Below, piece by piece: positions 3 to 46,745 of a stretch of 64,000 nt of DNA (positions within the stretch are counted from its first letter, which is position 1; each line of letters begins with the position of its first letter). The notes under the pieces were generated by a model, which was given only the letters and a program-made list of their open reading frames with translations, ran no database searches and was not told the origin of the DNA. A program made the translations under genes and the position numbers. The stretch comes from a virus (taxonomy: Duplodnaviria > Caudoviricetes): IMG/VR virus record IMGVR_UViG_3300031867_000001, positions 64,001 through 128,000 of that record; one strand, given 5' to 3'.

Positions 3-848
3 GAGTTCATCGATGATGCATGTATGCATCCGGATAAGTATCTGATCTCTTCAGAGGAATTAAGTGAAGAGATTGTGAAAAAGCTTGTCAGTGAGTACGG
101 CAGAATCACAGTAACCACTGAAGAAATCAACAACGATCGCACCAGACTTTGCGAGGATCCTGTATGGAATAGCTTCCTCGAAACCTCGTCCACGAAAATG
201 TGGAAAACCTACCCATTCAATTTAATCGCATTGATATTCGGTTTCACAAAGGAAGAGATGACAAACAGCGGATACATTAACGTTGACAGCACAGTTCAGA
301 AGGAACTCGCTATCATGTGGGTTAATGGAGTCATCAAAACATGTCAAATTGCTGAAAAGCGATTCGATATCGTAGAAATGCGTTATCAGCAGCACTTGTC
401 GTTGGTTGATATTGGTAATAAATACCATATTACCACGAATAGAGTCAGACAACTTCTGGCTAAATTCCTCCGGCAGATGAGACATCCCACAAGATCCAGA
501 AAGCTTCGCGTTATAACCGAGGCATTGTTTAATACCAATGGTGAGGTTAACTTTTCAGATATAATCACGAAGTATGAACGTAAAATGACGGAGAAGGAAA
601 TTGCACGCGATCTTGCTGCAAAGAACGGCAATGTGTCGCTTGATGACATCACGATCGAAGAACTGAATTTCTCGGTTCGGACATTTAATTGTTTGAAGCG
701 TGCTGGTATCAATAATGTGGAAGAACTTGTTGATGCCATAACGAAGAAAACTGAAACAGGGTTTTTGTGCGATATTAGGAATCTCGGCAAGAAGTCCTAT
801 GGCGATATTTGTGACAAACTCACATCGATGGGGTTCTTAAAGGAATAA
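3..848 (+). CDS. Sigma70 region-4 HTH + RNA polymerase alpha-CTD fusion protein (probably 5'-truncated by window)
   Basis: SLVDIGNKYHITTNRVRQLLAKFLRQMRHPTRSRKLR matches RpoD region 4.2 ([22 protein letters not shown]); C-terminal IEELNFSVRTFNCLKRAGINNVEEL...IRNLGKKSYGDI matches alpha-CTD. Frame is open from position 3, upstream of ATG 24. Confidence 0.8.
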   Translation, partial: EFIDDACMHPDKYLISSEELSEEIVKKLVSEYGRITVTTEEINNDRTRLCEDPVWNSFLETSSTKMWKTYPFNLIALIFGFTKEEMTNSGYINVDSTVQKELAIMWVNGVIKTCQIAEKRFDIVEMRYQQHLSLVDIGNKYHITTNRVRQLLAKFLRQMRHPTRSRKLRVITEALFNTNGEVNFSDIITKYERKMTEKEIARDLAAKNGNVSLDDITIEELNFSVRTFNCLKRAGINNVEELVDAITKKTETGFLCDIRNLGKKSYGDICDKLTSMGFLKE

Positions 849-905: not shown

Positions 906-2603
906 ATGAGAAAGAACACTTACAAATTTGATCGTGAGACTTATATGTCTTCGAAGAGTTACAAGATCTCTGATAAAATCTTGAAGATCCCTCAGTGGAT
1001 TCTCATGACAGTTGCAATTGCACTGTCAATTGTGTATGGACTGATGATCACTAAATGCTCGGAAGTAATCAAGTCCGTCACTGAGGGTAATACCGATCTC
1101 ATCAATGTGTTGGCAGTCTATGTCGTTGTTAACATCGGTATGGCGGTTCTTTCATTCTTCTCCAATAACGCGTTAAAAGCATGGAGATTGAATGAAATCA
1201 ACAAGCAATTCCTTCGTAAGTATGATAAGATTTTCGATTCAAGAACGCAGGACATCACCGCTGTTGGTCCTGCGAAGATTGAGTCGACAGTCAATCAGAT
1301 TGCCGGATACAAGAGTGACATCAAGTCGCAGGTATCCGGTATCATTGAGGTGATTGTTCCATTCGGAGTGACCATGTGGAAGGTCATGGAACAGAACCTC
1401 ATTGCAGGATTCGCAATGCTGTTATTGATGGGAGGAACACTGTTTCTGTCGATTAATGGCGACAACATTTTTCACTTCAATGAGAAATCATCTCAGATGA
1501 AGGGAGAGATGAAGTCAATATCCGTTAACAACTTCGTCGTTGTTCGTATGCTCAAGTACATGGGTGCAAAAGAGTATGCGAACTACAGACAGAAGCGTTG
1601 TCAGGATGATGCTACGCCAGCTTTCTTGAACGTGTCAAGAAGATTCTATGACACATGCATGGACGTCCTGTACAACTCGCCCATACTCATTGCATTGGGT
1701 GTTGCGGCATTCTCTAATAATCTCGGACTCGCTATCTTTGTCGCTATGAACGAGTGGACAATCCGGTCGATGATCGGATATGTTTCATCGATCACGGAAA
1801 CAAAATCCGAGATTGATGGACTTGAGAAAGTTCTTGAGACCCTCAAGGGAGATGACACTGACATTTCCGAGAAACCTGCAATGCCTAATAAAATGATCCT
1901 CAAGGATGTGGAATTTTACTATGCTTCCGACAAGGATCATCGGATGCCCTTTAGAATTCCATATTTTGAGATTGAGCAGGGCAAACGGTATAGATTCTCA
2001 GGGGCCTCTGGTCTCGGCAAGAGCTCGTACTTTAAGTTCTTCGCCGGTGAAATGGAAGCGAACAAGTCGTTTGATGTTCGCACATTTTACATTCACCAGA
2101 GAAGTGAACTGGTATATGGTACAGTGAGAGAGAATCTGACGCTTGGAAACAAGTGGGTTCCTGATCCTGTACTGGAAGAACTGATCGAAGAGGTCAGACT
2201 TGGTCAGTGGTTTAAGTCTTTGCCGAATGGTTTGGATACTGTTATCGGTAAGGATATTGAACCGTCTGGTGGTGAACAGTCTCGTATCTCGCTGTTAAGA
2301 CTGTTTGTACATCTGAGAAATTATGGACCTACGGGTTCTCACCCAATCACTGATGAAGTGATTATCCTGGATGAAGTAACATCTGCTCTGGACAAGCGTG
2401 ATGTATTCATCAAGGATGGTGAATTATCGACCGAAGAAGCAGTCATCAAGGTTATTGACAAGGAGACTAAGGGTTCGACGATGTTCGTGATTTCGCACGA
2501 AGATGTGTCTTCGAATGCGTTTGGATTCAAGGACATCGTTGATGAGCAGATGGTAATTGACATTGATGAAGACGGAGGCAGAACGTTTCGTAAGATGATG
2601 TAA
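906..2603 (+). CDS. ABC exporter, fused transmembrane + ATPase domains
   Basis: N-terminal hydrophobic helices; Walker A GASGLGKS, Q-loop IHQ, signature PSGGEQ, Walker B/D-loop IILDEVTSALD, H-loop ISHE; SD AGGAGG. Confidence 0.9.
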   Translation: MRKNTYKFDRETYMSSKSYKISDKILKIPQWILMTVAIALSIVYGLMITKCSEVIKSVTEGNTDLINVLAVYVVVNIGMAVLSFFSNNALKAWRLNEINKQFLRKYDKIFDSRTQDITAVGPAKIESTVNQIAGYKSDIKSQVSGIIEVIVPFGVTMWKVMEQNLIAGFAMLLLMGGTLFLSINGDNIFHFNEKSSQMKGEMKSISVNNFVVVRMLKYMGAKEYANYRQKRCQDDATPAFLNVSRRFYDTCMDVLYNSPILIALGVAAFSNNLGLAIFVAMNEWTIRSMIGYVSSITETKSEIDGLEKVLETLKGDDTDISEKPAMPNKMILKDVEFYYASDKDHRMPFRIPYFEIEQGKRYRFSGASGLGKSSYFKFFAGEMEANKSFDVRTFYIHQRSELVYGTVRENLTLGNKWVPDPVLEELIEEVRLGQWFKSLPNGLDTVIGKDIEPSGGEQSRISLLRLFVHLRNYGPTGSHPITDEVIILDEVTSALDKRDVFIKDGELSTEEAVIKVIDKETKGSTMFVISHEDVSSNAFGFKDIVDEQMVIDIDEDGGRTFRKMM

Positions 2604-2607
2604 ATGA

Positions 2608-2632
2608 ATGTGGGGGCATTCAGCCCCCACAT
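2608..2632 (+). terminator. Stem-loop after ABC gene
   Basis: ATGTGGGGGC-ATTCA-GCCCCCACAT followed by CTTATTTT. Confidence 0.7.
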
Positions 2633-2634
2633 CT

Positions 2635-2889
2635 TATTTTGTGTAATTCCATAATCACTGAAAAATCAATGAGGTGAAAATCCCCATAGAAAGGAGTGGT
2701 ATTTTGCCATGAATGAACTTGGTGAAATCTACGTTCCGGATACTTCCGGACAAGAAATTATTTGCGGTTAAACCGTAAATGAATGACATCGCCCGTGTAA
2801 TAACAGTACACGAAGCATACCAAACCTTAGGCAAGTTTGTGACCGAACATAAGCAAACGCATTTCAGTGATTATGAAATTACATAAATA
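2635..2889 (+). ncRNA. Structured micro-peptide RNA element, copy A (divergent)
   Basis: Closing stem TGTAATTCCATAATCACTGAAA (2642-2663) / TTTCAGTGATTATGAAATTACA (2862-2883); internal hairpin, SD, micro-ORF and stop-codon hairpin as in copies B-D. Confidence 0.7.
2709..2771 (+). CDS. 20-aa micro-peptide MNELGEIYVPDTSGQEIICG
   Basis: SD AAAGGAG upstream; paralogous to three other micro-ORFs. Confidence 0.75.
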   Translation: MNELGEIYVPDTSGQEIICG

Positions 2890-2971
2890 GTCAACAAATT
2901 TATGTATATTATAGACTGGGGCTTGTGTATATGAGCCCCATAAACCTATTTCCAATAAGGAGGAATTTATT

Positions 2972-3430
2972 ATGACACGTAAAGAAATGATTAAGATGAT
3001 CATGAGACATGGTTTCCCATACATCATCGCTGCAGCTTTTACAGAGATGCATATTCGTTATGGATATGCGCTTCCATATGTAGGAAGACCCGAATCAGAA
3101 GAACTTGACGAGGATATGTCCGTACTCGGTCACGTACCGATCGAGCATATTTCGTTCAATGGCAATCATCCAGATTTCGGGGATTGCACTTTCATTTTAC
3201 AGAAGTACAAAAGACGTGAGTATCGCAACAATAAAAGAACATACTACCGCATGTTCATACTCAAGGATGGAGAAGTGTGGGACGAACGTGGTCCTTTTGC
3301 AGAGCGCGAACTCTATTCGGACATTATTCTCGGAACTGATTTAATGGACAGATTCATGCAGTCGGATAATAGTTATAATACCGGACTGAAGATCTCTAAT
3401 CCTGTTGCTGAGATTAAGCATGTTTGTTAA
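2972..3430 (+). CDS. Hypothetical protein
   Basis: 152 aa ORF, SD AAGGAGG, preceded by AT-rich promoter-like motif and 5' hairpin. Confidence 0.75.
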   Translation: MTRKEMIKMIMRHGFPYIIAAAFTEMHIRYGYALPYVGRPESEELDEDMSVLGHVPIEHISFNGNHPDFGDCTFILQKYKRREYRNNKRTYYRMFILKDGEVWDERGPFAERELYSDIILGTDLMDRFMQSDNSYNTGLKISNPVAEIKHVC

Positions 3431-3442
3431 ACACATTATAAC

Positions 3443-3464
3443 GTCCCCCGCATAAGCGGGGGAC
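3443..3464 (+). terminator. GC stem-loop
   Basis: GTCCCCCGC-ATAA-GCGGGGGAC. Confidence 0.6.
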
Positions 3465-3477
3465 TCGTATATGTGGT

Positions 3478-3690
3478 TTTATGTATATTGACAAGTGCCA
3501 TGAAATTGACGGAGTGGAATTCTCCGTGTGAAAGGAGATGATAACATGGAGGAAGTTTATATCCCCGATACAGAAGGTTGTATCATCATTTGCGAATAAT
3601 CGTGAATGATTAAAAAAATAAACGGAAGCGGTTGCGGCTTCCGTGTCCGAAACACACAAACGTATCATGGCACTTGTCAATGTATATAAA
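3478..3690 (+). ncRNA. Structured micro-peptide RNA element, copy B
   Basis: 26-bp closing stem 3478-3503/3665-3690 with 2 G.U pairs; hairpin ACGGAG-TGGAATT-CTCCGT 3509-3527; 3' hairpin ACGGAAGC...GCTTCCGT. Confidence 0.8.
3546..3599 (+). CDS. 17-aa micro-peptide MEEVYIPDTEGCIIICE
   Basis: SD AAAGGAG; paralog family with synonymous codon variation. Confidence 0.8.
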   Translation: MEEVYIPDTEGCIIICE

Positions 3691-3748
3691 CGGAAGTGTG
3701 TTATATATCATTGTGTTCATAACACACAATCCGTTTATTTTTTCTCTA

Positions 3749-5080
3749 TTAACCAAGTTCCGCCAGAGCTTGGTTGATATCAAATGGTTTGATTGTACCC
3801 GCGACATCTAATGCTGGTGAGATGTACTTCTCAAGCTCTTCTTTCGCAACTGTTAAGAATGCTTTTGCAGTTTCAGGATTCTTTGCAAAGTCTTCGTATA
3901 TTTTCTTCCACGTAAACTTCTCGGAGATCTCTTCACCCTTTTCGTTAAGCACCTTGAAACCTGCCTTGTTACCCTTGAGACGACCCTTACTGTTCAACAA
4001 CAGTACGAGTGTTCGAATATTGTCAACACCATTCTTAGTCTTGTCAATAACGATTCTGAAACCAAGTCCGGTTTTATTATTACCAGACTGATTGGTGGAA
4101 AGTTTCGTGGGCTCATACAAAATTGTATTCCCATTGAAACCGTCTTGAGCTTCATAATAACGCGAGTCTTCTTTGATTTCACCTGTAAATGACATAACAG
4201 AAGAAGCATTATATTCAACTGATTTACCACCGCTGATCTTAATATCGTGGGATCCATATTGGAATTGCTTCTTCGGTCCAGAGAATGCATTCATTGCAAC
4301 ATTTGCATTCTCATGTGCGATTGTGATAAAGATGATATTAGCTTCTTTCAACATTGGAAGAATGTCGCATAATACACCTTTAAGTGTTTTAGCATTCTGC
4401 ATACCATCTGTATTGGAACGCATTTCCTTTTGTTTATCCCATTCTTTTGCATCACGAATCTCATATTCCTTTGAGATTACATCACTCAAGGAATCAAGGA
4501 ATAGAATCGTTGGTGGCATCAGCTTGATCGGTTCATTGTTACAATCAACAACACCTGTATCCTTTAACAGAATATCTTTATAACGCATCTTGTTCTCGTA
4601 GATTTCTGTTACGATTGTTTGTAATGTATCATAACCAATCGCACCACTCCTCAAAGCATAACGTGGAGAATCACCATTGAACCAATTGTCAGGTAATCCA
4701 GTCATATTCTTAAGACGCTGAATGACAAGTCTGTTTTCAGCATCAAGATGAATGACATTACCACCATTTGCAGATGCGATATTTGCAGCCATAATCATTG
4801 CAATTGTTGTTTTGAAAGACTGTGTTGGTCCAGTCACAACATTGAATGTACCGGCTTGAATACCAAGACACAACCGTTTGCCAATCAACTTACCATCTTT
4901 GTCTTTGATATTGACTTCATATCCAAGTGAATAGTCGATTACAGAAATACCTGTAGGATATGAATAATCAACAAGTGTATTTTTTGAAAATACAGAAGAC
5001 TGACCATTGTTCGACAGAATCGTCATTAAGTCAGCATCTTTCATTTCTTCATTCAAAACTGATTGTTTCTTATTAGCCAT
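3749..5080 (-). CDS. RecA/UvsX-like recombinase (jumbo-phage type)
   Basis: PTGISVIDYSLG, Walker A GPTQSFKTT, HLDAE, Walker B LFLDS, SGGKSVEYNAS. Confidence 0.85.
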   Translation of the reverse strand: MANKKQSVLNEEMKDADLMTILSNNGQSSVFSKNTLVDYSYPTGISVIDYSLGYEVNIKDKDGKLIGKRLCLGIQAGTFNVVTGPTQSFKTTIAMIMAANIASANGGNVIHLDAENRLVIQRLKNMTGLPDNWFNGDSPRYALRSGAIGYDTLQTIVTEIYENKMRYKDILLKDTGVVDCNNEPIKLMPPTILFLDSLSDVISKEYEIRDAKEWDKQKEMRSNTDGMQNAKTLKGVLCDILPMLKEANIIFITIAHENANVAMNAFSGPKKQFQYGSHDIKISGGKSVEYNASSVMSFTGEIKEDSRYYEAQDGFNGNTILYEPTKLSTNQSGNNKTGLGFRIVIDKTKNGVDNIRTLVLLLNSKGRLKGNKAGFKVLNEKGEEISEKFTWKKIYEDFAKNPETAKAFLTVAKEELEKYISPALDVAGTIKPFDINQALAELG

Positions 5081-10127: not shown

Positions 10128-10169
10128 AATACTTCTCCATTCTTTTTATGATGTATAAACAGTGCCCCA

Positions 10170-12053
10170 TTACAGGGCACCGTTCATAACATCATCGATT
10201 GTGTATATCGGTTTTCCTAAGTTCTGTGCTTTTGCAACTTTGGAAGACTGATATGTGATCTGAGGAATTACCAGTGCTTTCACACCTTTATTCCATGCTT
10301 CTGTTACGTCATAACCCTTCTGCTGTAATAAATTGATTAAGTCTTTATCCCGTGTTCCAGAAATACAGATTGTCCCTTTATCATTCTGCATTGCAACTGG
10401 GATTTCGAATTTGACATAATTGATGATTGTGGATATATCGTCCCAATATCGTGTAATACCAATCCGGATTGCTTGTTCTGTCAGTGGTCCAATACCAACT
10501 GTATCCCACAGAATCTTATTCAAGAAATCATCCGGTGTATCCCGCATACACATTTCGGTTATATCCTTAATCATTTCTGGATTGTTCTTACCATAAACCG
10601 AATCAAGAATAATCTCCCATTTCTTATTGGATACATTTTCACATGGGAATGATCCAAGCCATCTGGATACGGGAACATTGAATGATGATTGTTTCAATGA
10701 ACGAATCATGTTCTGTAATGATCTGAATCCAAATCCATCCACTTCGGCAGCTTCCATCAAATCCATTACATATAGATCAGAGATTTGTCTGATATATCCA
10801 GACTCATACAGTCGCTTTATGAATCCTTCCGAAACACCAAACACTTTCATGTTCTTACAATACCGGATGATGTTACCACATTTCACACCATCACAATTTG
10901 GATTGACACACTTAACTTGCTTCAACGAAGACATGTTAAGCTTCTCTCCACAGATTGGGCATTTGTCTGGGATTGGAATTGGTAATGTTCCATCGCCATT
11001 GGAACCAATGAAGTATGGCACGATGTTGTACATAATACGAACCGTATCTCCAAACTTCAAGTTCATATTGGCAACTCTTTCGAATGTCGACAATCCGACA
11101 TTTTGAACGATGACATTTCCGAATACAACTGGTTCAACAATTGCAACTGGAGTGATATGACCGGAATTACCGAATTGCCAACTGATATCTTTCAGCTTCG
11201 TTTCTTGTACGAGATTCAGTATCTTGATAGCAACTTCATTGGATGGATCTGTTACGACATCTTCATCTTCCTCATCAATGTGTATGGTGGAAGATACAAC
11301 AACTCCATCACATTCAAATTCATATTTCCCAACATTAACGTGAGCTTGATTGGATAATAATCTATCAACGAATGCTTGAATACATTCATAGTCATTCTTC
11401 TGATAAACAACAGATACATCCATCAACATATCCGGAATATGTTGAAACTTCCAAGTGTACACACGTAATGGAACTAATGTAATCAAATTACCAACCTCGG
11501 CATTACGTGATGTAATTGTTGCAGCAACAACATCTCTCGGTCGTTTGTACTTGTGTGAGAATTGTGATTTGAATATGTTGATATCCAAGATTGCTTCAAA
11601 CTTCACGGCAGTTACATCATCATACCACTTTACTATCCAATCATGGATCGTATTGATATGAGACTTGAATACATCTGTTACATCAACAGATTCTCCATTG
11701 TCATAATCACCCCTTGTGAAGAATCTACCGGATGCAACATCATATGCAACAGACGTTCCATCGAACTTTGGTTGAACGCATACCAAATCACTGACTTGAT
11801 GTTTGTTAACCCATTCTTCATATACTGGCTGATTCTCGCGCATTGGTGTTCGTACGCCATAGACTTTTGGAAGTGTTCCGACAACGTCATTCACAGCATC
11901 GGATTGTTTTTGACGTGTAAATGGTCTGGCGGATTCGCCATGTTCTTTGATATACTCTTCCAACAACTTGTCATATTCAGAGTCTTCGATCAAGGGGGTG
12001 CCATGTGAATATGCCTCGATATATTTGTCAAGCTCTTCTTTTGTGATACTCAT
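10170..12053 (-). CDS. ligA: NAD+-dependent DNA ligase
   Basis: IEDSEYDKL, KFDG, TRGD, DGVVV, OB-fold G.ITPVA.VEPV, Zn finger CPICG..C.NPNC, C-terminal BRCT (ISGTR...SSKVAKA). Confidence 0.93.
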   Translation of the reverse strand: MSITKEELDKYIEAYSHGTPLIEDSEYDKLLEEYIKEHGESARPFTRQKQSDAVNDVVGTLPKVYGVRTPMRENQPVYEEWVNKHQVSDLVCVQPKFDGTSVAYDVASGRFFTRGDYDNGESVDVTDVFKSHINTIHDWIVKWYDDVTAVKFEAILDINIFKSQFSHKYKRPRDVVAATITSRNAEVGNLITLVPLRVYTWKFQHIPDMLMDVSVVYQKNDYECIQAFVDRLLSNQAHVNVGKYEFECDGVVVSSTIHIDEEDEDVVTDPSNEVAIKILNLVQETKLKDISWQFGNSGHITPVAIVEPVVFGNVIVQNVGLSTFERVANMNLKFGDTVRIMYNIVPYFIGSNGDGTLPIPIPDKCPICGEKLNMSSLKQVKCVNPNCDGVKCGNIIRYCKNMKVFGVSEGFIKRLYESGYIRQISDLYVMDLMEAAEVDGFGFRSLQNMIRSLKQSSFNVPVSRWLGSFPCENVSNKKWEIILDSVYGKNNPEMIKDITEMCMRDTPDDFLNKILWDTVGIGPLTEQAIRIGITRYWDDISTIINYVKFEIPVAMQNDKGTICISGTRDKDLINLLQQKGYDVTEAWNKGVKALVIPQITYQSSKVAKAQNLGKPIYTIDDVMNGAL

Positions 12054-12715: not shown

Positions 12716-12917
12716 AACCATTTTGAACATTGTGATGAGTTGGTTTGTTGTGGACGTGTGGAAGTTGCTACCTTCCACATTTATTATTTTTTAATTATCC
12801 ACGATTATTCGCAGATGATGCTACCAGTTGTGTCTGGAATATAAACTTCTTGCATTATGTAACACCTCCTTTGTACGGAGAATTCCACTCCGTATATTTC
12901 ACAATGTTCAATTGGTT
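12716..12917 (-). ncRNA. Structured micro-peptide RNA element, copy C
   Basis: Closing stem TTGAACATTGTGA/TCACAATGTTCAA (12899-12911/12723-12735) plus flanks; ACGGAG-TGGAATT-CTCCGT hairpin; GTGGAAG..CTTCCAC hairpin. Confidence 0.8.
12805..12855 (-). CDS. 16-aa micro-peptide MQEVYIPDTTGSIICE
   Basis: SD AAAGGAGG; paralog family. Confidence 0.8.
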   Translation of the reverse strand: MQEVYIPDTTGSIICE

Positions 12918-12960
12918 TTTGGGTAGTATAAGCGGGGGAATATTCCCCCACTTATACCAT

Positions 12961-12980
12961 ATTAATTATATATTTATTTG
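12961..12980 (-). promoter_or_regulatory. Putative phage early promoter AAATAAATATATAATTAAT
   Basis: Same or similar motif recurs at 32984, 45468, 46053 upstream of small non-structural genes, each followed by a hairpin. Confidence 0.55.
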
Positions 12981-32098: not shown

Positions 32099-32680
32099 TT
32101 ATACTTCTCTGAATTCACATGTGATGATATGACCAACCATATTCACCAGGCGTGTGATTGTTGTAATAGACACAACCAATGAATCATGATCTGCAGTCTG
32201 TTGGTACTTCAAAGTGAATTGTGCAACATTATTCGAGATGGTTTGTTTCAATACTTTCGACATATCTTTACGAATCATCTCTGGGGTGATCTTGAAATAC
32301 TCAATGACATATTCGTACAACCGATTGAATGTGGGGTTGGCTGTTTTGTACACCCATTCTTCAATCACATCAGACATATCCGGTGTGAATAATGTGATAA
32401 CACATGCGATGTTCGGTTGTTTGGCTTGTACTGTCTTAAGCAGTTCCCCAAGTTTTGATTGTGACATTGTATTGGTTGATGAATTCAACATTGTCACGAA
32501 TTGATCATTGAGAGATGTTTTGTGAATCACATCTGTCTCAACTGCTTTACAGAATGCAGACATGATGATATCACACGCACATTTCTTGGACGTGTCTATG
32601 ATGATATTTTCACTCACCATATCCTTTAAGTGTTGGATGGCGGATGGAGCCATCAATGCTCTTGCTTCTTCAAGTGTCAT
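32099..32680 (-). CDS. Hypothetical protein
   Basis: Likely start MTLEE, SD AAGGGAG. Confidence 0.65.
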   Translation of the reverse strand: MTLEEARALMAPSAIQHLKDMVSENIIIDTSKKCACDIIMSAFCKAVETDVIHKTSLNDQFVTMLNSSTNTMSQSKLGELLKTVQAKQPNIACVITLFTPDMSDVIEEWVYKTANPTFNRLYEYVIEYFKITPEMIRKDMSKVLKQTISNNVAQFTLKYQQTADHDSLVVSITTITRLVNMVGHIITCEFREV

Positions 32681-32748
32681 ATAAAATACTCCCTTCAAAA
32701 TATATTCATATGTTTAAACCCATGAATGGGATTACACTGGTAATTAAT

Positions 32749-32947
32749 CCAATTTGAACATTGTGATGAGTTTGCGGTTGTTTGGTCGGAAGTAGCAGCT
32801 TCCGTATTTATTTGATTTTAATTATTTGCGATTATTCGCAAATAATGATACTGCCAGTAGTATCCGGAATATAAATTTCTTCCATGAAATATCACTTCCT
32901 TTCACACGGAGAATTCCACTCCGTCAATTTCACAATGTTCAAATTGG
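32749..32947 (-). ncRNA. Structured micro-peptide RNA element, copy D
   Basis: Perfect 18-bp closing stem CCAATTTGAACATTGTGA (32749-32766/32930-32947); ACGGAG-TGGAATT-CTCCGT; CGGAAG..CTTCCG. Confidence 0.8.
32832..32885 (-). CDS. 17-aa micro-peptide MEEIYIPDTTGSIIICE
   Basis: SD AAAGGAAGTG; paralog family. Confidence 0.8.
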   Translation of the reverse strand: MEEIYIPDTTGSIIICE

Positions 32948-32983
32948 TTGATATAAATGTGAAGATACACCCACTTATACCAA

Positions 32984-33003
32984 ATTAATTATATATTTAT
33001 TTA
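32984..33003 (-). promoter_or_regulatory. Putative phage early promoter AAATAAATATATAATTAAT
   Basis: Identical to the motif upstream of copy C. Confidence 0.55.
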
Positions 33004-45026: not shown

Positions 45027-45395
45027 TTAGCCCAGGCTCTTGACCCAGTCGTAGGTCTCCTTTAAGAAGCCCTCGAAGATCTCCACCTCGCAGTCAGTCA
45101 TGGAGATGCCATAACGATAGTGATCCGGCTGCCAGCGCATGAGCGCAATGAGCGACTGCTCACGAAGCCAGCCGATTGCATCGGTTTCAGGCATCCACTT
45201 CAGGACTTCATTGAACCTCCTGACATCAGATGAGCCCAGGTCACCGTCTCCCTCGGTGGTAGCACATACCTGGAAGCGGTATGCACGGAAAGGTACGAGA
45301 TAACCCTTCTCGCTGTGGTCGATCGTCTCAACCTTGAGACACGGGATTGTGCAGTTCAGCTCGTGCAGTACAGAAATAGCATTAGTCATTGTCAA
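45027..45395 (-). CDS. Hypothetical early protein
   Basis: SD AAGGAGG, own promoter motif at 45468-45486, higher GC than neighbours. Confidence 0.7.
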   Translation of the reverse strand: MTMTNAISVLHELNCTIPCLKVETIDHSEKGYLVPFRAYRFQVCATTEGDGDLGSSDVRRFNEVLKWMPETDAIGWLREQSLIALMRWQPDHYRYGISMTDCEVEIFEGFLKETYDWVKSLG

Positions 45396-45549
45396 TTCCT
45401 CCTTAGAATTGTTTATAAAGGTTTATATTTTCTTTGATAAGAGTCAGCTTGCTTATTCCCTTATCATATTAATTATATATATTTGAAAAATCAAAATAAT
45501 AGAAAAAATACATATGCGGGGGATGGACCCCCGCATATCATCACATATA

Positions 45550-45993
45550 TTACTTCTTCTTGAAGTCATCTGTATGCTGCTTGAGATAGTACTCATCATG
45601 TGCAGCAGTCGTGGAAGTGTACTCCTCACCCTTGCGATCACCCATCTGGATAATACCGGTCTTGGTCTTCTCTTCCTTATGAACCATCTTCAATGTTGCA
45701 GGTGCTGTATTACCATCCGGAGCCGGAAGATTGATTGCACGGCTCTCATCCTGCATGTACTTTGTGATTACATTCGGAAGCTGCTCTGCAAGAGGAGTTA
45801 CATCAAAATCATTGATCTCATCAATGATTCCGAGTTCAGCTTCACAAGACGGAAATCCGGCACGCTTGATGCCCTTCTTCAGCGTCTCGCGAAACGCCGT
45901 CTGAATCTCAGCGGTGTCACCACTCTTGTTGTTGACAGCCTTGTTACTCCACTCACAAATCGCTGCGATGGAATGTCCCTTTGTTGTAATCAT
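45550..45993 (-). CDS. Putative HU/IHF-like DNA-binding protein
   Basis: C-terminal arm-like segment LKMVHKEEKTKTGIIQMGDRKGEEYTSTTAAH; own promoter and terminator; fold assignment weak. Confidence 0.4.
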   Translation of the reverse strand: MITTKGHSIAAICEWSNKAVNNKSGDTAEIQTAFRETLKKGIKRAGFPSCEAELGIIDEINDFDVTPLAEQLPNVITKYMQDESRAINLPAPDGNTAPATLKMVHKEEKTKTGIIQMGDRKGEEYTSTTAAHDEYYLKQHTDDFKKK

Positions 45994-46111
45994 ATCGATT
46001 ACCTCCTTAATGTAAAATTATATGCAAACATCATGTATGATGTTTCATACTCATCAATTATATGTATTTCTAAAATGTAAATTAAATGATAACATTTTTA
46101 ATTTATATGCA

Positions 46112-46309
46112 TTACATTTCAATCAAACCATCAGACACACCAACTGTATCCATTAATGTTTCTTTTGTAATTTCAGTACCATCCATTTGGTTTATCACAA
46201 TCATACCTTTGTTCAGTAGATTGATGATATCTGATTGAGTTGCGGTCATTAAATCACCAACATGTTTGTGATTTGCATCCATAATCGTAATATTATATGT
46301 CATTATCAT
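46112..46309 (-). CDS. Hypothetical protein
   Basis: 65 aa ORF with SD. Confidence 0.55.
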   Translation of the reverse strand: MIMTYNITIMDANHKHVGDLMTATQSDIINLLNKGMIVINQMDGTEITKETLMDTVGVSDGLIEM

Positions 46310-46331
46310 TCACCTGATTTCTTTTGTTTAT

Positions 46332-46745
46332 TTAATATATGTGATTAAAATAAGATGTTATCATCCCATGTGTAATGGTTAAACCATCAAATGGTAACAT
46401 ATTAATTGATAATATGATGTATGCGTTTGGAACACGATAGTTCATTGATTGAATGAACTTTACTAATAGTTCTATATATTCGGTTCCAAATTTAATAGAT
46501 TCCAAATCAGGAATCCCATCTGATGATGATACTTCATATGGAAATTCAAATAACGAGATGGATTCAATATGTTCTCCCATATAAGCGAATCTCGTTTTGA
46601 TTTCATCAATGATCATATTAGATAATTCATATACAGCTTTTGTTTCTCTTGGGGTATCCGCTAATGTAATACCACGATATGTTTTGTAATAATGCAATAA
46701 TCCGACTGATAATATTTCAATGAATTCTCTGAATGGAATGTTCAT
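46332..46745 (-). CDS. Hypothetical protein
   Basis: 137 aa ORF, SD AGGAGG. Confidence 0.65.
   Translation of the reverse strand: MNIPFREFIEILSVGLLHYYKTYRGITLADTPRETKAVYELSNMIIDEIKTRFAYMGEHIESISLFEFPYEVSSSDGIPDLESIKFGTEYIELLVKFIQSMNYRVPNAYIILSINMLPFDGLTITHGMITSYFNHIY

Follow-up and report, generated by a model that had tools for sequence, protein, structure and literature searches.

In trpL-type attenuators the stop codon of the leader lies at the loop of the 1:2 hairpin, which is formed by the last codons and the sequence that follows them. The mRNAs of the type I toxins hok and aapA1 encode small peptides and are closed by a long-distance helix between their 5' and 3' ends. The mccA transcript, which carries a tiny ORF, is short, abundant and exceptionally stable (PMC4231749). 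PepNL, a peptide of 14 aa, arrests the ribosome at its stop codon, and stem-loops are predicted around that stop (PMC11890864). In tmRNA, the loop of helix 5 contains one to three stop codons, of which the first is usually UAA; activity requires this helix, which the ribosome unwinds with its helicase (PMC1168896).

We analysed a window of 64,000 nucleotides (bases 64001-128000) from the 250.5-kb genome of a rumen jumbo phage with 37.6% G+C. A first-pass annotation of the window had reported that the stop codons of four micro-ORFs lie in hairpin loops, and its comparison with tmRNA helix 5 is factually right (PMC1168896). It had gone on to propose that termination is structurally controlled and that translation itself, rather than the peptide, may be the function. 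Our analysis of this hairpin, which we name P3, describes it as a stem-loop across the coding region and 3' flank of a small structured mRNA, within an undescribed expression module.

Results

Copies of the micro-ORF

Six copies of the micro-ORF were detected in the phage genome, four in the window (A-D) and two outside it (E and F). In the window, copies A (2709..2771, MNELGEIYVPDTSGQEIICG) and B (3546..3599, MEEVYIPDTEGCIIICE) lie on the plus strand, A being downstream of an ABC exporter-like gene, and copies C (12805..12855, MQEVYIPDTTGSIICE) and D (32832..32885, MEEIYIPDTTGSIIICE) on the minus strand; each coordinate range includes the stop codon. A related 258-kb phage (G001; IMG/VR UViG_2061766007_000342), with ~73% nucleotide identity to the phage genome over the alignable part, carries four copies. 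The comparisons below use 18 distinct copies, namely the four in the window, the two others of the same genome and 12 further ones from the related phage and metagenome contigs, with ORFs of 16-20 codons.

No match to module B was found by blastn among 50,697 phage records, and a peptide-pattern scan of one genome per prokaryote species gave no relative. Scans of viral contigs with the P2 motif returned, outside G001, just two chance matches within coding regions. There was no window match to Rfam at the gathering score and, over 2600-3750 at E <= 1, there were chance-level matches only; ARAGORN called neither a tRNA nor a tmRNA in the window. Neither the module nor its peptide matches a described family in Rfam, Pfam, PHROGs, phage records or prokaryote genomes. 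The UvsX-like recombinase of the phage is only 23-27% identical to the counterparts in AR9/PBS1-type jumbo phages. An unusual fusion of sigma-70 region 4 with the RNA polymerase alpha C-terminal domain is encoded in one 274-aa ORF at 24-848 (plus strand).

A compensated hairpin around the stop codon

P3 is formed by the last three to four codons paired with the first ~11 nt after the stop (7-11 bp) and is found in 18/18 copies; when the last four codons were folded with 16 nt of 3' flank, UAA lay in the loop in all 18. The four sequences quoted in the first-pass annotation are present in the window and each folds in this way. P3 of copy A (2758..2782, plus strand) has a predicted energy of -11.0 kcal/mol (z -5.85), and its loop is the stop codon itself (2769-2771). 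The hairpin of copy B had been placed at 3588-3609, which captures the inner 9 bp and is one base off; the full stem spans 3585..3610 on the plus strand (-10.7 kcal/mol, z -3.85), with the 5' arm at 3585-3595 (Ile-Ile-Cys-Gl), the loop AUAA at 3596-3599, the stop at 3597-3599 and the 3' arm at 3600-3610. On the minus strand, P3 of copy C (12797..12816) has 8 bp and -7.6 kcal/mol, and P3 of copy D (32821..32846) is a perfect 11-bp stem with the loop AUAA (-11.3 kcal/mol, z -4.47).

Over the 18 copies the mean energy of P3 is -9.0 kcal/mol, compared to -1.6 kcal/mol with the 16 nt after the stop shuffled, and the hairpin is individually significant (p <= 0.008) in 16 of them, the two weak cases being L023 and L033. 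In the 18-row alignment (A3), 93.9% of 198 cells are paired; sliding the 3' arm by 1-3 columns lowers this to 29-44%. Double, compensatory changes occur at 4 of the 11 pairs, with a covariation score that none of 500 shuffles reached. The same helix was recovered independently by RNAalifold on 14 whole modules.

The 3' arm had been said to follow synonymous changes in the Ile-Ile-Cys codons, and the third-base pairs bear this out. For the Ile codon that stands four codons ahead of the stop, the wobble pair is C-G in 8 copies, U-A in 5 and U-G in 2; for the next Ile codon it is C-G once and U-A in 14, and for Cys C-G in 13, U-G in 4 and U-A in 1. A synonymous AUU to AUC change in copy C is offset by A to G in the 3' arm, and the Glu-to-Gly change of copy A (GGU) is compensated by ACC. 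Loss of the hairpin from homologs that keep the peptide, which the annotation had named as evidence that would refute it, was not seen, all 18 distinct homologs keeping it. P3 also accompanies the peptide in each of three scaffold types, one that has both P2 and P4, one that lacks P4 and one that lacks P2.

G·U pairs fill 27 of the 198 cells (~14%), and on the opposite strand they would read A·C, which indicates that P3 is an RNA helix on the sense (coding) strand. The sense strand also folds better than the antisense strand at P3 in most copies. An operator-type DNA palindrome is ruled out by the same G·U cells. The stems are AU-rich, with 3-4 G-C pairs and energies from -4 to -13 kcal/mol; internal loops are tolerated in two copies of the family (G1_47721 and G1_153411). 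The hairpin loop varies from 3 to 8 nt and its first base is free (A7/G6/C3/U2). The stop codon is UAA in 18/18 copies, in the context UAAU in 15/18. Predicted unpaired probabilities are 0.12 for the 5' arm, 0.16 for the 3' arm, 0.93 for the loop and 0.83 for the A-rich linker that follows.

As a background for this arrangement, 14 of 364 crude ORFs of at least 80 aa in the same genome have a stop-in-loop hairpin, and the strongest of these 14 are GC-rich and terminator-like. The 627-aa ORF at 10170-12053, for instance, has its stop codon inside the loop of its own GC-rich, terminator-like hairpin (~10150-10190, minus strand, -28 kcal/mol), and several further ordinary genes of the phage likewise put the stop into such a loop. 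A stop codon in a hairpin loop is therefore not by itself unique to the micro-ORFs.

A coupled ORF starting from the AUG within the P3 3' arm (AAUGAU) was considered and rejected as incidental, neither its length nor its presence being conserved. In copy A, a 35-codon ORF (2779-2886, plus strand) starts at this AUG and crosses the 3' arm of that module's P1; it has no counterpart in the other copies examined and is probably not a gene.

Codon choice and an in-ORF hairpin

The ORF itself encloses a second hairpin, P3a, of the general form GAYACN (Asp-Thr) paired with NGURUC (Ser/Cys-Ile). In the MFE fold of copy B (3567..3584, plus strand), GAUACA (Asp-Thr) pairs with UGUAUC (Cys-Ile) and the helix abuts P3; the same codons form P3a in copy D (32847-32864, minus strand) and in the majority of the others. 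A good P3a is lacking from copies A, C and E, and in copies with Val replacing Ser the register is shifted by one codon. Overall 86% of the cells are paired and double changes occur at 3 pairs, in one of which the Ser-to-Cys replacement of copy B is matched by a synonymous ACU to ACA change.

The codons of P3a are within the top 5% of synonymous recodings in 14/18 copies (median p 0.013). Ser is encoded by AGY in 13/13 copies, compared to 21% AGY among the Ser codons of the genome, and Thr in the micro-ORFs is mostly ACU, a minority codon in the genome. On this codon evidence P3a is evidently tuned by codon choice. A further candidate, a helix of codons 3-7 with the A-rich linker that would enclose P3a and P3, was found in copy F only (mean z -0.47) and was rejected.

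Two conserved micropeptides

The peptide of the micro-ORF, pep1, is acidic, 16-20 aa long and predicted to be strand-turn-strand, with the end Ile-Ile-Cys-Glu. Its consensus over the 18 distinct copies is x-E-[IV]-Y-[IV]-P-[DN]-T-x-G-x-[IV]-[IV]-I-C-[EDGN]. The residues E, Y, P, T, G, I and C are invariant, several of them outside both helices. The invariant set includes the antepenultimate Ile and the penultimate Cys, and the last residue is E, D, G or N. The codons of invariant residues vary freely (Tyr UAU 11 and UAC 7, Pro all four, Cys UGC 13 and UGU 5), and invariance despite such abundant synonymous change argues that the amino-acid sequence is selected. Judged from these substitutions, pep1 is under purifying selection along its whole length, and the suggestion that translation rather than the peptide is the function finds no support in them. 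Pep1 could possibly act as a free product or as a nascent chain.

The same clamped scaffold also carries pep2, a different conserved peptide of 13 aa (MGEIITGEEIFLG). The paralog with pep2 lies outside the window, at 32647-32870 of the phage genome (G000, locus L037), and at L001:2330-2520. Pep2 differs between the two phages by 5 synonymous and 0 non-synonymous changes, and its stop changes from UAA to UGA. Its distal ORF also folds as a hairpin, with the stop just outside the stem and a U-rich stretch behind it.

The ABC exporter gene of the window (906-2603, plus strand) encodes a divergent fused permease/ATPase with weak CydDC-like and bacteriocin-exporter-like matches. An ABC exporter-like gene is directly upstream of micro-ORF copies both in the phage and in the related phage, and it is conceivable from this adjacency that it exports the peptide. 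In G001 the exporter-like gene (~45278-46398, locus L009) is split by ~1.1 kb missing from the phage genome, the interruption falling between residues 373 of two tblastn pieces; the insertion may be an intron, an intein or a homing-endonuclease insertion.

Scaffold and genomic setting of the module

The module is ~190 nt long and consists, in order, of the P1 5' arm, P2, the SD and micro-ORF, P3, an A-rich linker, the optional P4 and the P1 3' arm. P1 is a helix of 16-27 bp that joins the two ends of the module; of 16 aligned pairs, 12 show double changes and 94% of the cells are paired. In module B (plus strand) the 5' arm of this long-range clamp is at 3477..3503 and the 3' arm at 3665..3690, as placed by covariation and the consensus fold. 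The P2 hairpin (3509..3527; ACGGAG with CUCCGU) is nearly invariant, and the SD AAAGGAG (3531-3537) stands behind it. The single-stranded A-rich linker follows P3 at 3611..3621 (mean unpaired probability 0.83), and P4 is at 3622..3644. P4 is missing from 4 of the 14 modules (L023, L027b, L029 and L033). On the minus strand, P4 of B is a terminator-like hairpin with a T-run behind the UvsX-like gene, and on the sense strand P4 has no such tract.

A GGAG-type SD is placed 7-10 nt ahead of AUG or GUG in all copies examined. RNAalifold on the 14 modules found P1, P2 and P3, and only a 3-bp conserved helix in the SD-start region. Single-sequence folds give this region an unpaired probability of 0.44-0.47, and by this measure it is less cleanly open than in the consensus fold. 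Behind P3 a UUAAAAA tract, predicted to be unpaired, is conserved in 15/18 copies; copy E has hardly any linker after P3.

We detected a promoter-like motif of ~27 nt (AAATTTGAAATA TATATAATTAATATG) with ~20 occurrences genome-wide, including ~12958-12972 and ~32981-32995 (minus strand) in the window. Copies C, D, E and F and one paralog are directly behind it, which makes five of the ~20 units. In the related phage, the locus syntenic to D carries the promoter and lacks the module. Module B has no same-strand gene downstream, yet it is conserved in the related phage. An 88-aa antisense ORF over module B was dismissed as a candidate, being absent at module D. In copies C, D and E an extra GC-rich hairpin lies between the promoter motif and P1 (12915-12950 and 32946-32975, minus strand, for C and D), and it may be a stabiliser of the transcript 5' end.

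Discussion

Our preferred reading, held tentatively and at somewhat below even odds, is that P3 is a structural, protective element of a stem-clamped micro-mRNA, tied to pep1, and that the stop in the loop is a consequence of geometry. Sequence comparison shows P3 itself, its covariation, its strand specificity, P3a and selection on the peptide; nuclease protection and the melting of P3 at termination go beyond this and are put forward as suggestions. In the ribosome-free RNA, P3 and P3a would fold away the distal two thirds of the message, taking up its last ~10 codons, the stop codon and ~11 nt directly behind it, while the SD, the start codon, about seven codons and the A-rich linker would stay outside the conserved helices. 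The helicase of an elongating ribosome would melt P3 and P3a, the stop would be read in a linear form in the strong UAAU context, and both hairpins would re-form after release. A very short message, poorly covered by ribosomes, would thus be shielded from endonucleases and 3'-exonucleases, and the preserved compact fold of the module would allow a high peptide output per copy. The stop would come to lie in the loop because no sequence other than the untranslated stretch directly behind the last codons is free to evolve complementarity to them.

The footprint of the ribosome and the geometry of its helicase are established. A stop codon in the A site would place the 5' arm of P3 in the P and E sites, and the mRNA channel would hold most of the 3' arm. 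With both arms inside the ribosome the hairpin would be gone when the release factor acts, so the stop could not be displayed to it. The earlier proposal of structurally controlled termination is not supported, given this geometry, the strong UAAU context, the variable loop, the purifying selection on the peptide, the presence of P3a and the position of the pep2 stop outside its stem. The refolding switch proposed with it would require an alternative partner, and neither arm of P3 has a conserved one: the best duplexes that the 3' arm can form elsewhere do not outscore shuffled controls (mean z +0.17) and lie at scattered positions, which leaves the switch unsupported. Scrambling the 3' arm also has no significant effect on mean predicted SD accessibility, which is 0.49 for the wild type and 0.45 for the shuffled arm (p = 0.12); the idea that P3 keeps the Ile codons off the SD spacer as an anti-anti-SD is therefore not supported. 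The structural reading gains from P3a, from the pep2 stop outside the distal hairpin and from the absence of alternative partners, and the stable, abundant mccA transcript is a precedent for it. It is weakened by the modest stems of P3, which would make a poor exonuclease block, by the copies without a good P3a (A, C and E), and by the invariant UAA, Ile and Cys, which would equally fit a termination-linked role.

In such a role the conserved C-terminal residues would arrest the ribosome at UAA, as those of TnaC and PepNL do, with the parked ribosome or the refolding of P3 as the function, whether by stabilising the 5' ends of early transcripts or by sequestering ribosomes or release factor. 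The fixed UAA and the invariant Ile and Cys before it point this way, as does the PepNL precedent, and the module heads five of the ~20 early-promoter units, which suits a role in cis. We nevertheless consider hold-up at the stop unlikely, because the hairpin should be melted at that moment, its arms have no alternative partner, the stop context is strong and the last residue varies, because module B is kept in the related phage with no same-strand gene to act on, and because the same scaffold bears a different conserved peptide with a different stop arrangement. A stronger form, in which the engaged ribosome is the main product of the pep1 module, the nascent chain slowing release at UAA and the re-zipping of P3a and P3 setting the length of the stay, seems to us more doubtful still. 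It would imply ribosomes parked at the 5' ends of early transcripts, or ribosomes or release factor titrated during host takeover, and canonical initiation on an RNA built like tmRNA.

In its untranslated state P3, by itself or in a stack with P3a, might instead be the binding site of a protein from phage or host, for example a repressor of translation, a nuclease that processes the RNA or a chaperone, which would recognise the loop and the top base pairs of a dual-function RNA. This has perhaps one chance in several of being right. The top of the stem is nearly invariant (G-C in 16/18 and A-U in 17/18 copies) above an invariant UAA, P3 travels with the pep1 cargo across scaffolds, and the abutting P3 and P3a could stack into a rod of ~17 bp. 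The invariant positions, however, carry no independent signal, since the stop and the codons for Cys and Glu/Asp dictate them as well, the non-coding arm is conserved for complementarity only, and a binder would have to accept the differing loop lengths and the internal loops. In a narrower form of the protective reading, which we regard as improbable, an endonuclease would cut in the A-rich linker and 3' exonucleases would trim back to P3, so that the mature micro-mRNA would end in the stop-containing hairpin. The unpaired UUAAAAA tract behind P3 and the dispensable P4 would agree with that, but the strongly covarying P1 clamp encloses both linker and P4, indicating that the whole module is kept as one RNA, and copy E is almost free of a linker. 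A signal to the polymerase, with P3 as a pause or terminator hairpin like the trp leader 1:2 hairpin or the mccA terminator, is very improbable: the ordinary phage genes with stops in terminator-like loops offer a parallel, but their hairpins are GC-rich, while P3 has AU-rich stems with UU and an A-run, rather than a U-tract, behind them, 2:3 alternative pairing is absent and the sense-strand P4 has no U-tract.

The gene, with only 17 codons, is a clean natural example of overlapping codes, with amino acids, a codon-tuned in-ORF hairpin and a compensated stop hairpin selected together. Its setting is a multi-copy, stem-clamped expression module, and both of the micropeptides it carries, pep1 and pep2, were missed by gene callers. 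At ~190 nt the module is a compact, synthesisable test system for the relation between RNA structure at a stop codon and the stability and output of a micro-mRNA. Control of termination by the hairpin, if true, would be a new kind of ribosome-directed phage device, which the evidence makes unlikely.

Comparison with known systems

The micro-ORF resembles a trpL-type leader in the stop codon at a hairpin loop and in its run of Ile codons. As an attenuator, however, it lacks 2:3 pairing and a U-tract terminator, and P4 is absent from 4/14 modules. P3 is also unlike an intrinsic terminator overlapping the stop, since its stem is not GC-rich and the terminator scan did not call it. The long-distance 5'-3' helix P1 is shared with hok and aapA1, but the SD lies outside all consensus helices and is not sequestered by the clamp, the acidic peptide is too short and polar for a membrane toxin, and there is no sign of an antisense RNA. 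PeSL cassettes of T4-type phages are likewise early-promoter-linked stem-loop units around small ORFs, and dual-function sRNAs are likewise structured and coding at once; to our knowledge neither is known for a stop-codon-containing hairpin.

With mccA the module has in common a tiny ORF, a strong SD and a hairpin right behind the ORF (PMC4231749). The mcc hairpin acts as an intrinsic terminator once a ribosome binds, whereas P3 has no U-tract and includes the stop codon, and no modification enzyme is evident beside the micro-ORF copies. TnaC and PepNL are similar to pep1 in the very short ORF, the conserved C-terminal residues and the stem-loops predicted around the stop (PMC11890864). Pep1 has the conserved C-terminal residues and fixed stop of an arrest peptide, with a variable last residue. 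It differs in that P3 is not linked to a regulated structure further downstream, that behind one of the copies there is no gene, and that the gene is multi-copy, with one peptide standing before unrelated genes.

The module is not a tmRNA, as shown by the SD and the AUG or GUG start in all copies examined, in place of resume-codon entry, and by the lack of a tRNA-like domain or of any ARAGORN or Rfam match (window; Rfam also over 2600-3750 at E <= 1). Typical pseudoknots and a CCA end were not seen, and the peptide is not of the usual degradation tag type. The architecture is nevertheless close to that of tmRNA: both are small RNAs paired at their ends around a short internal ORF. In both, the ORF is open in its proximal portion and forms a helix with downstream sequence in its distal portion, and the UAA stop is in the loop of that helix.
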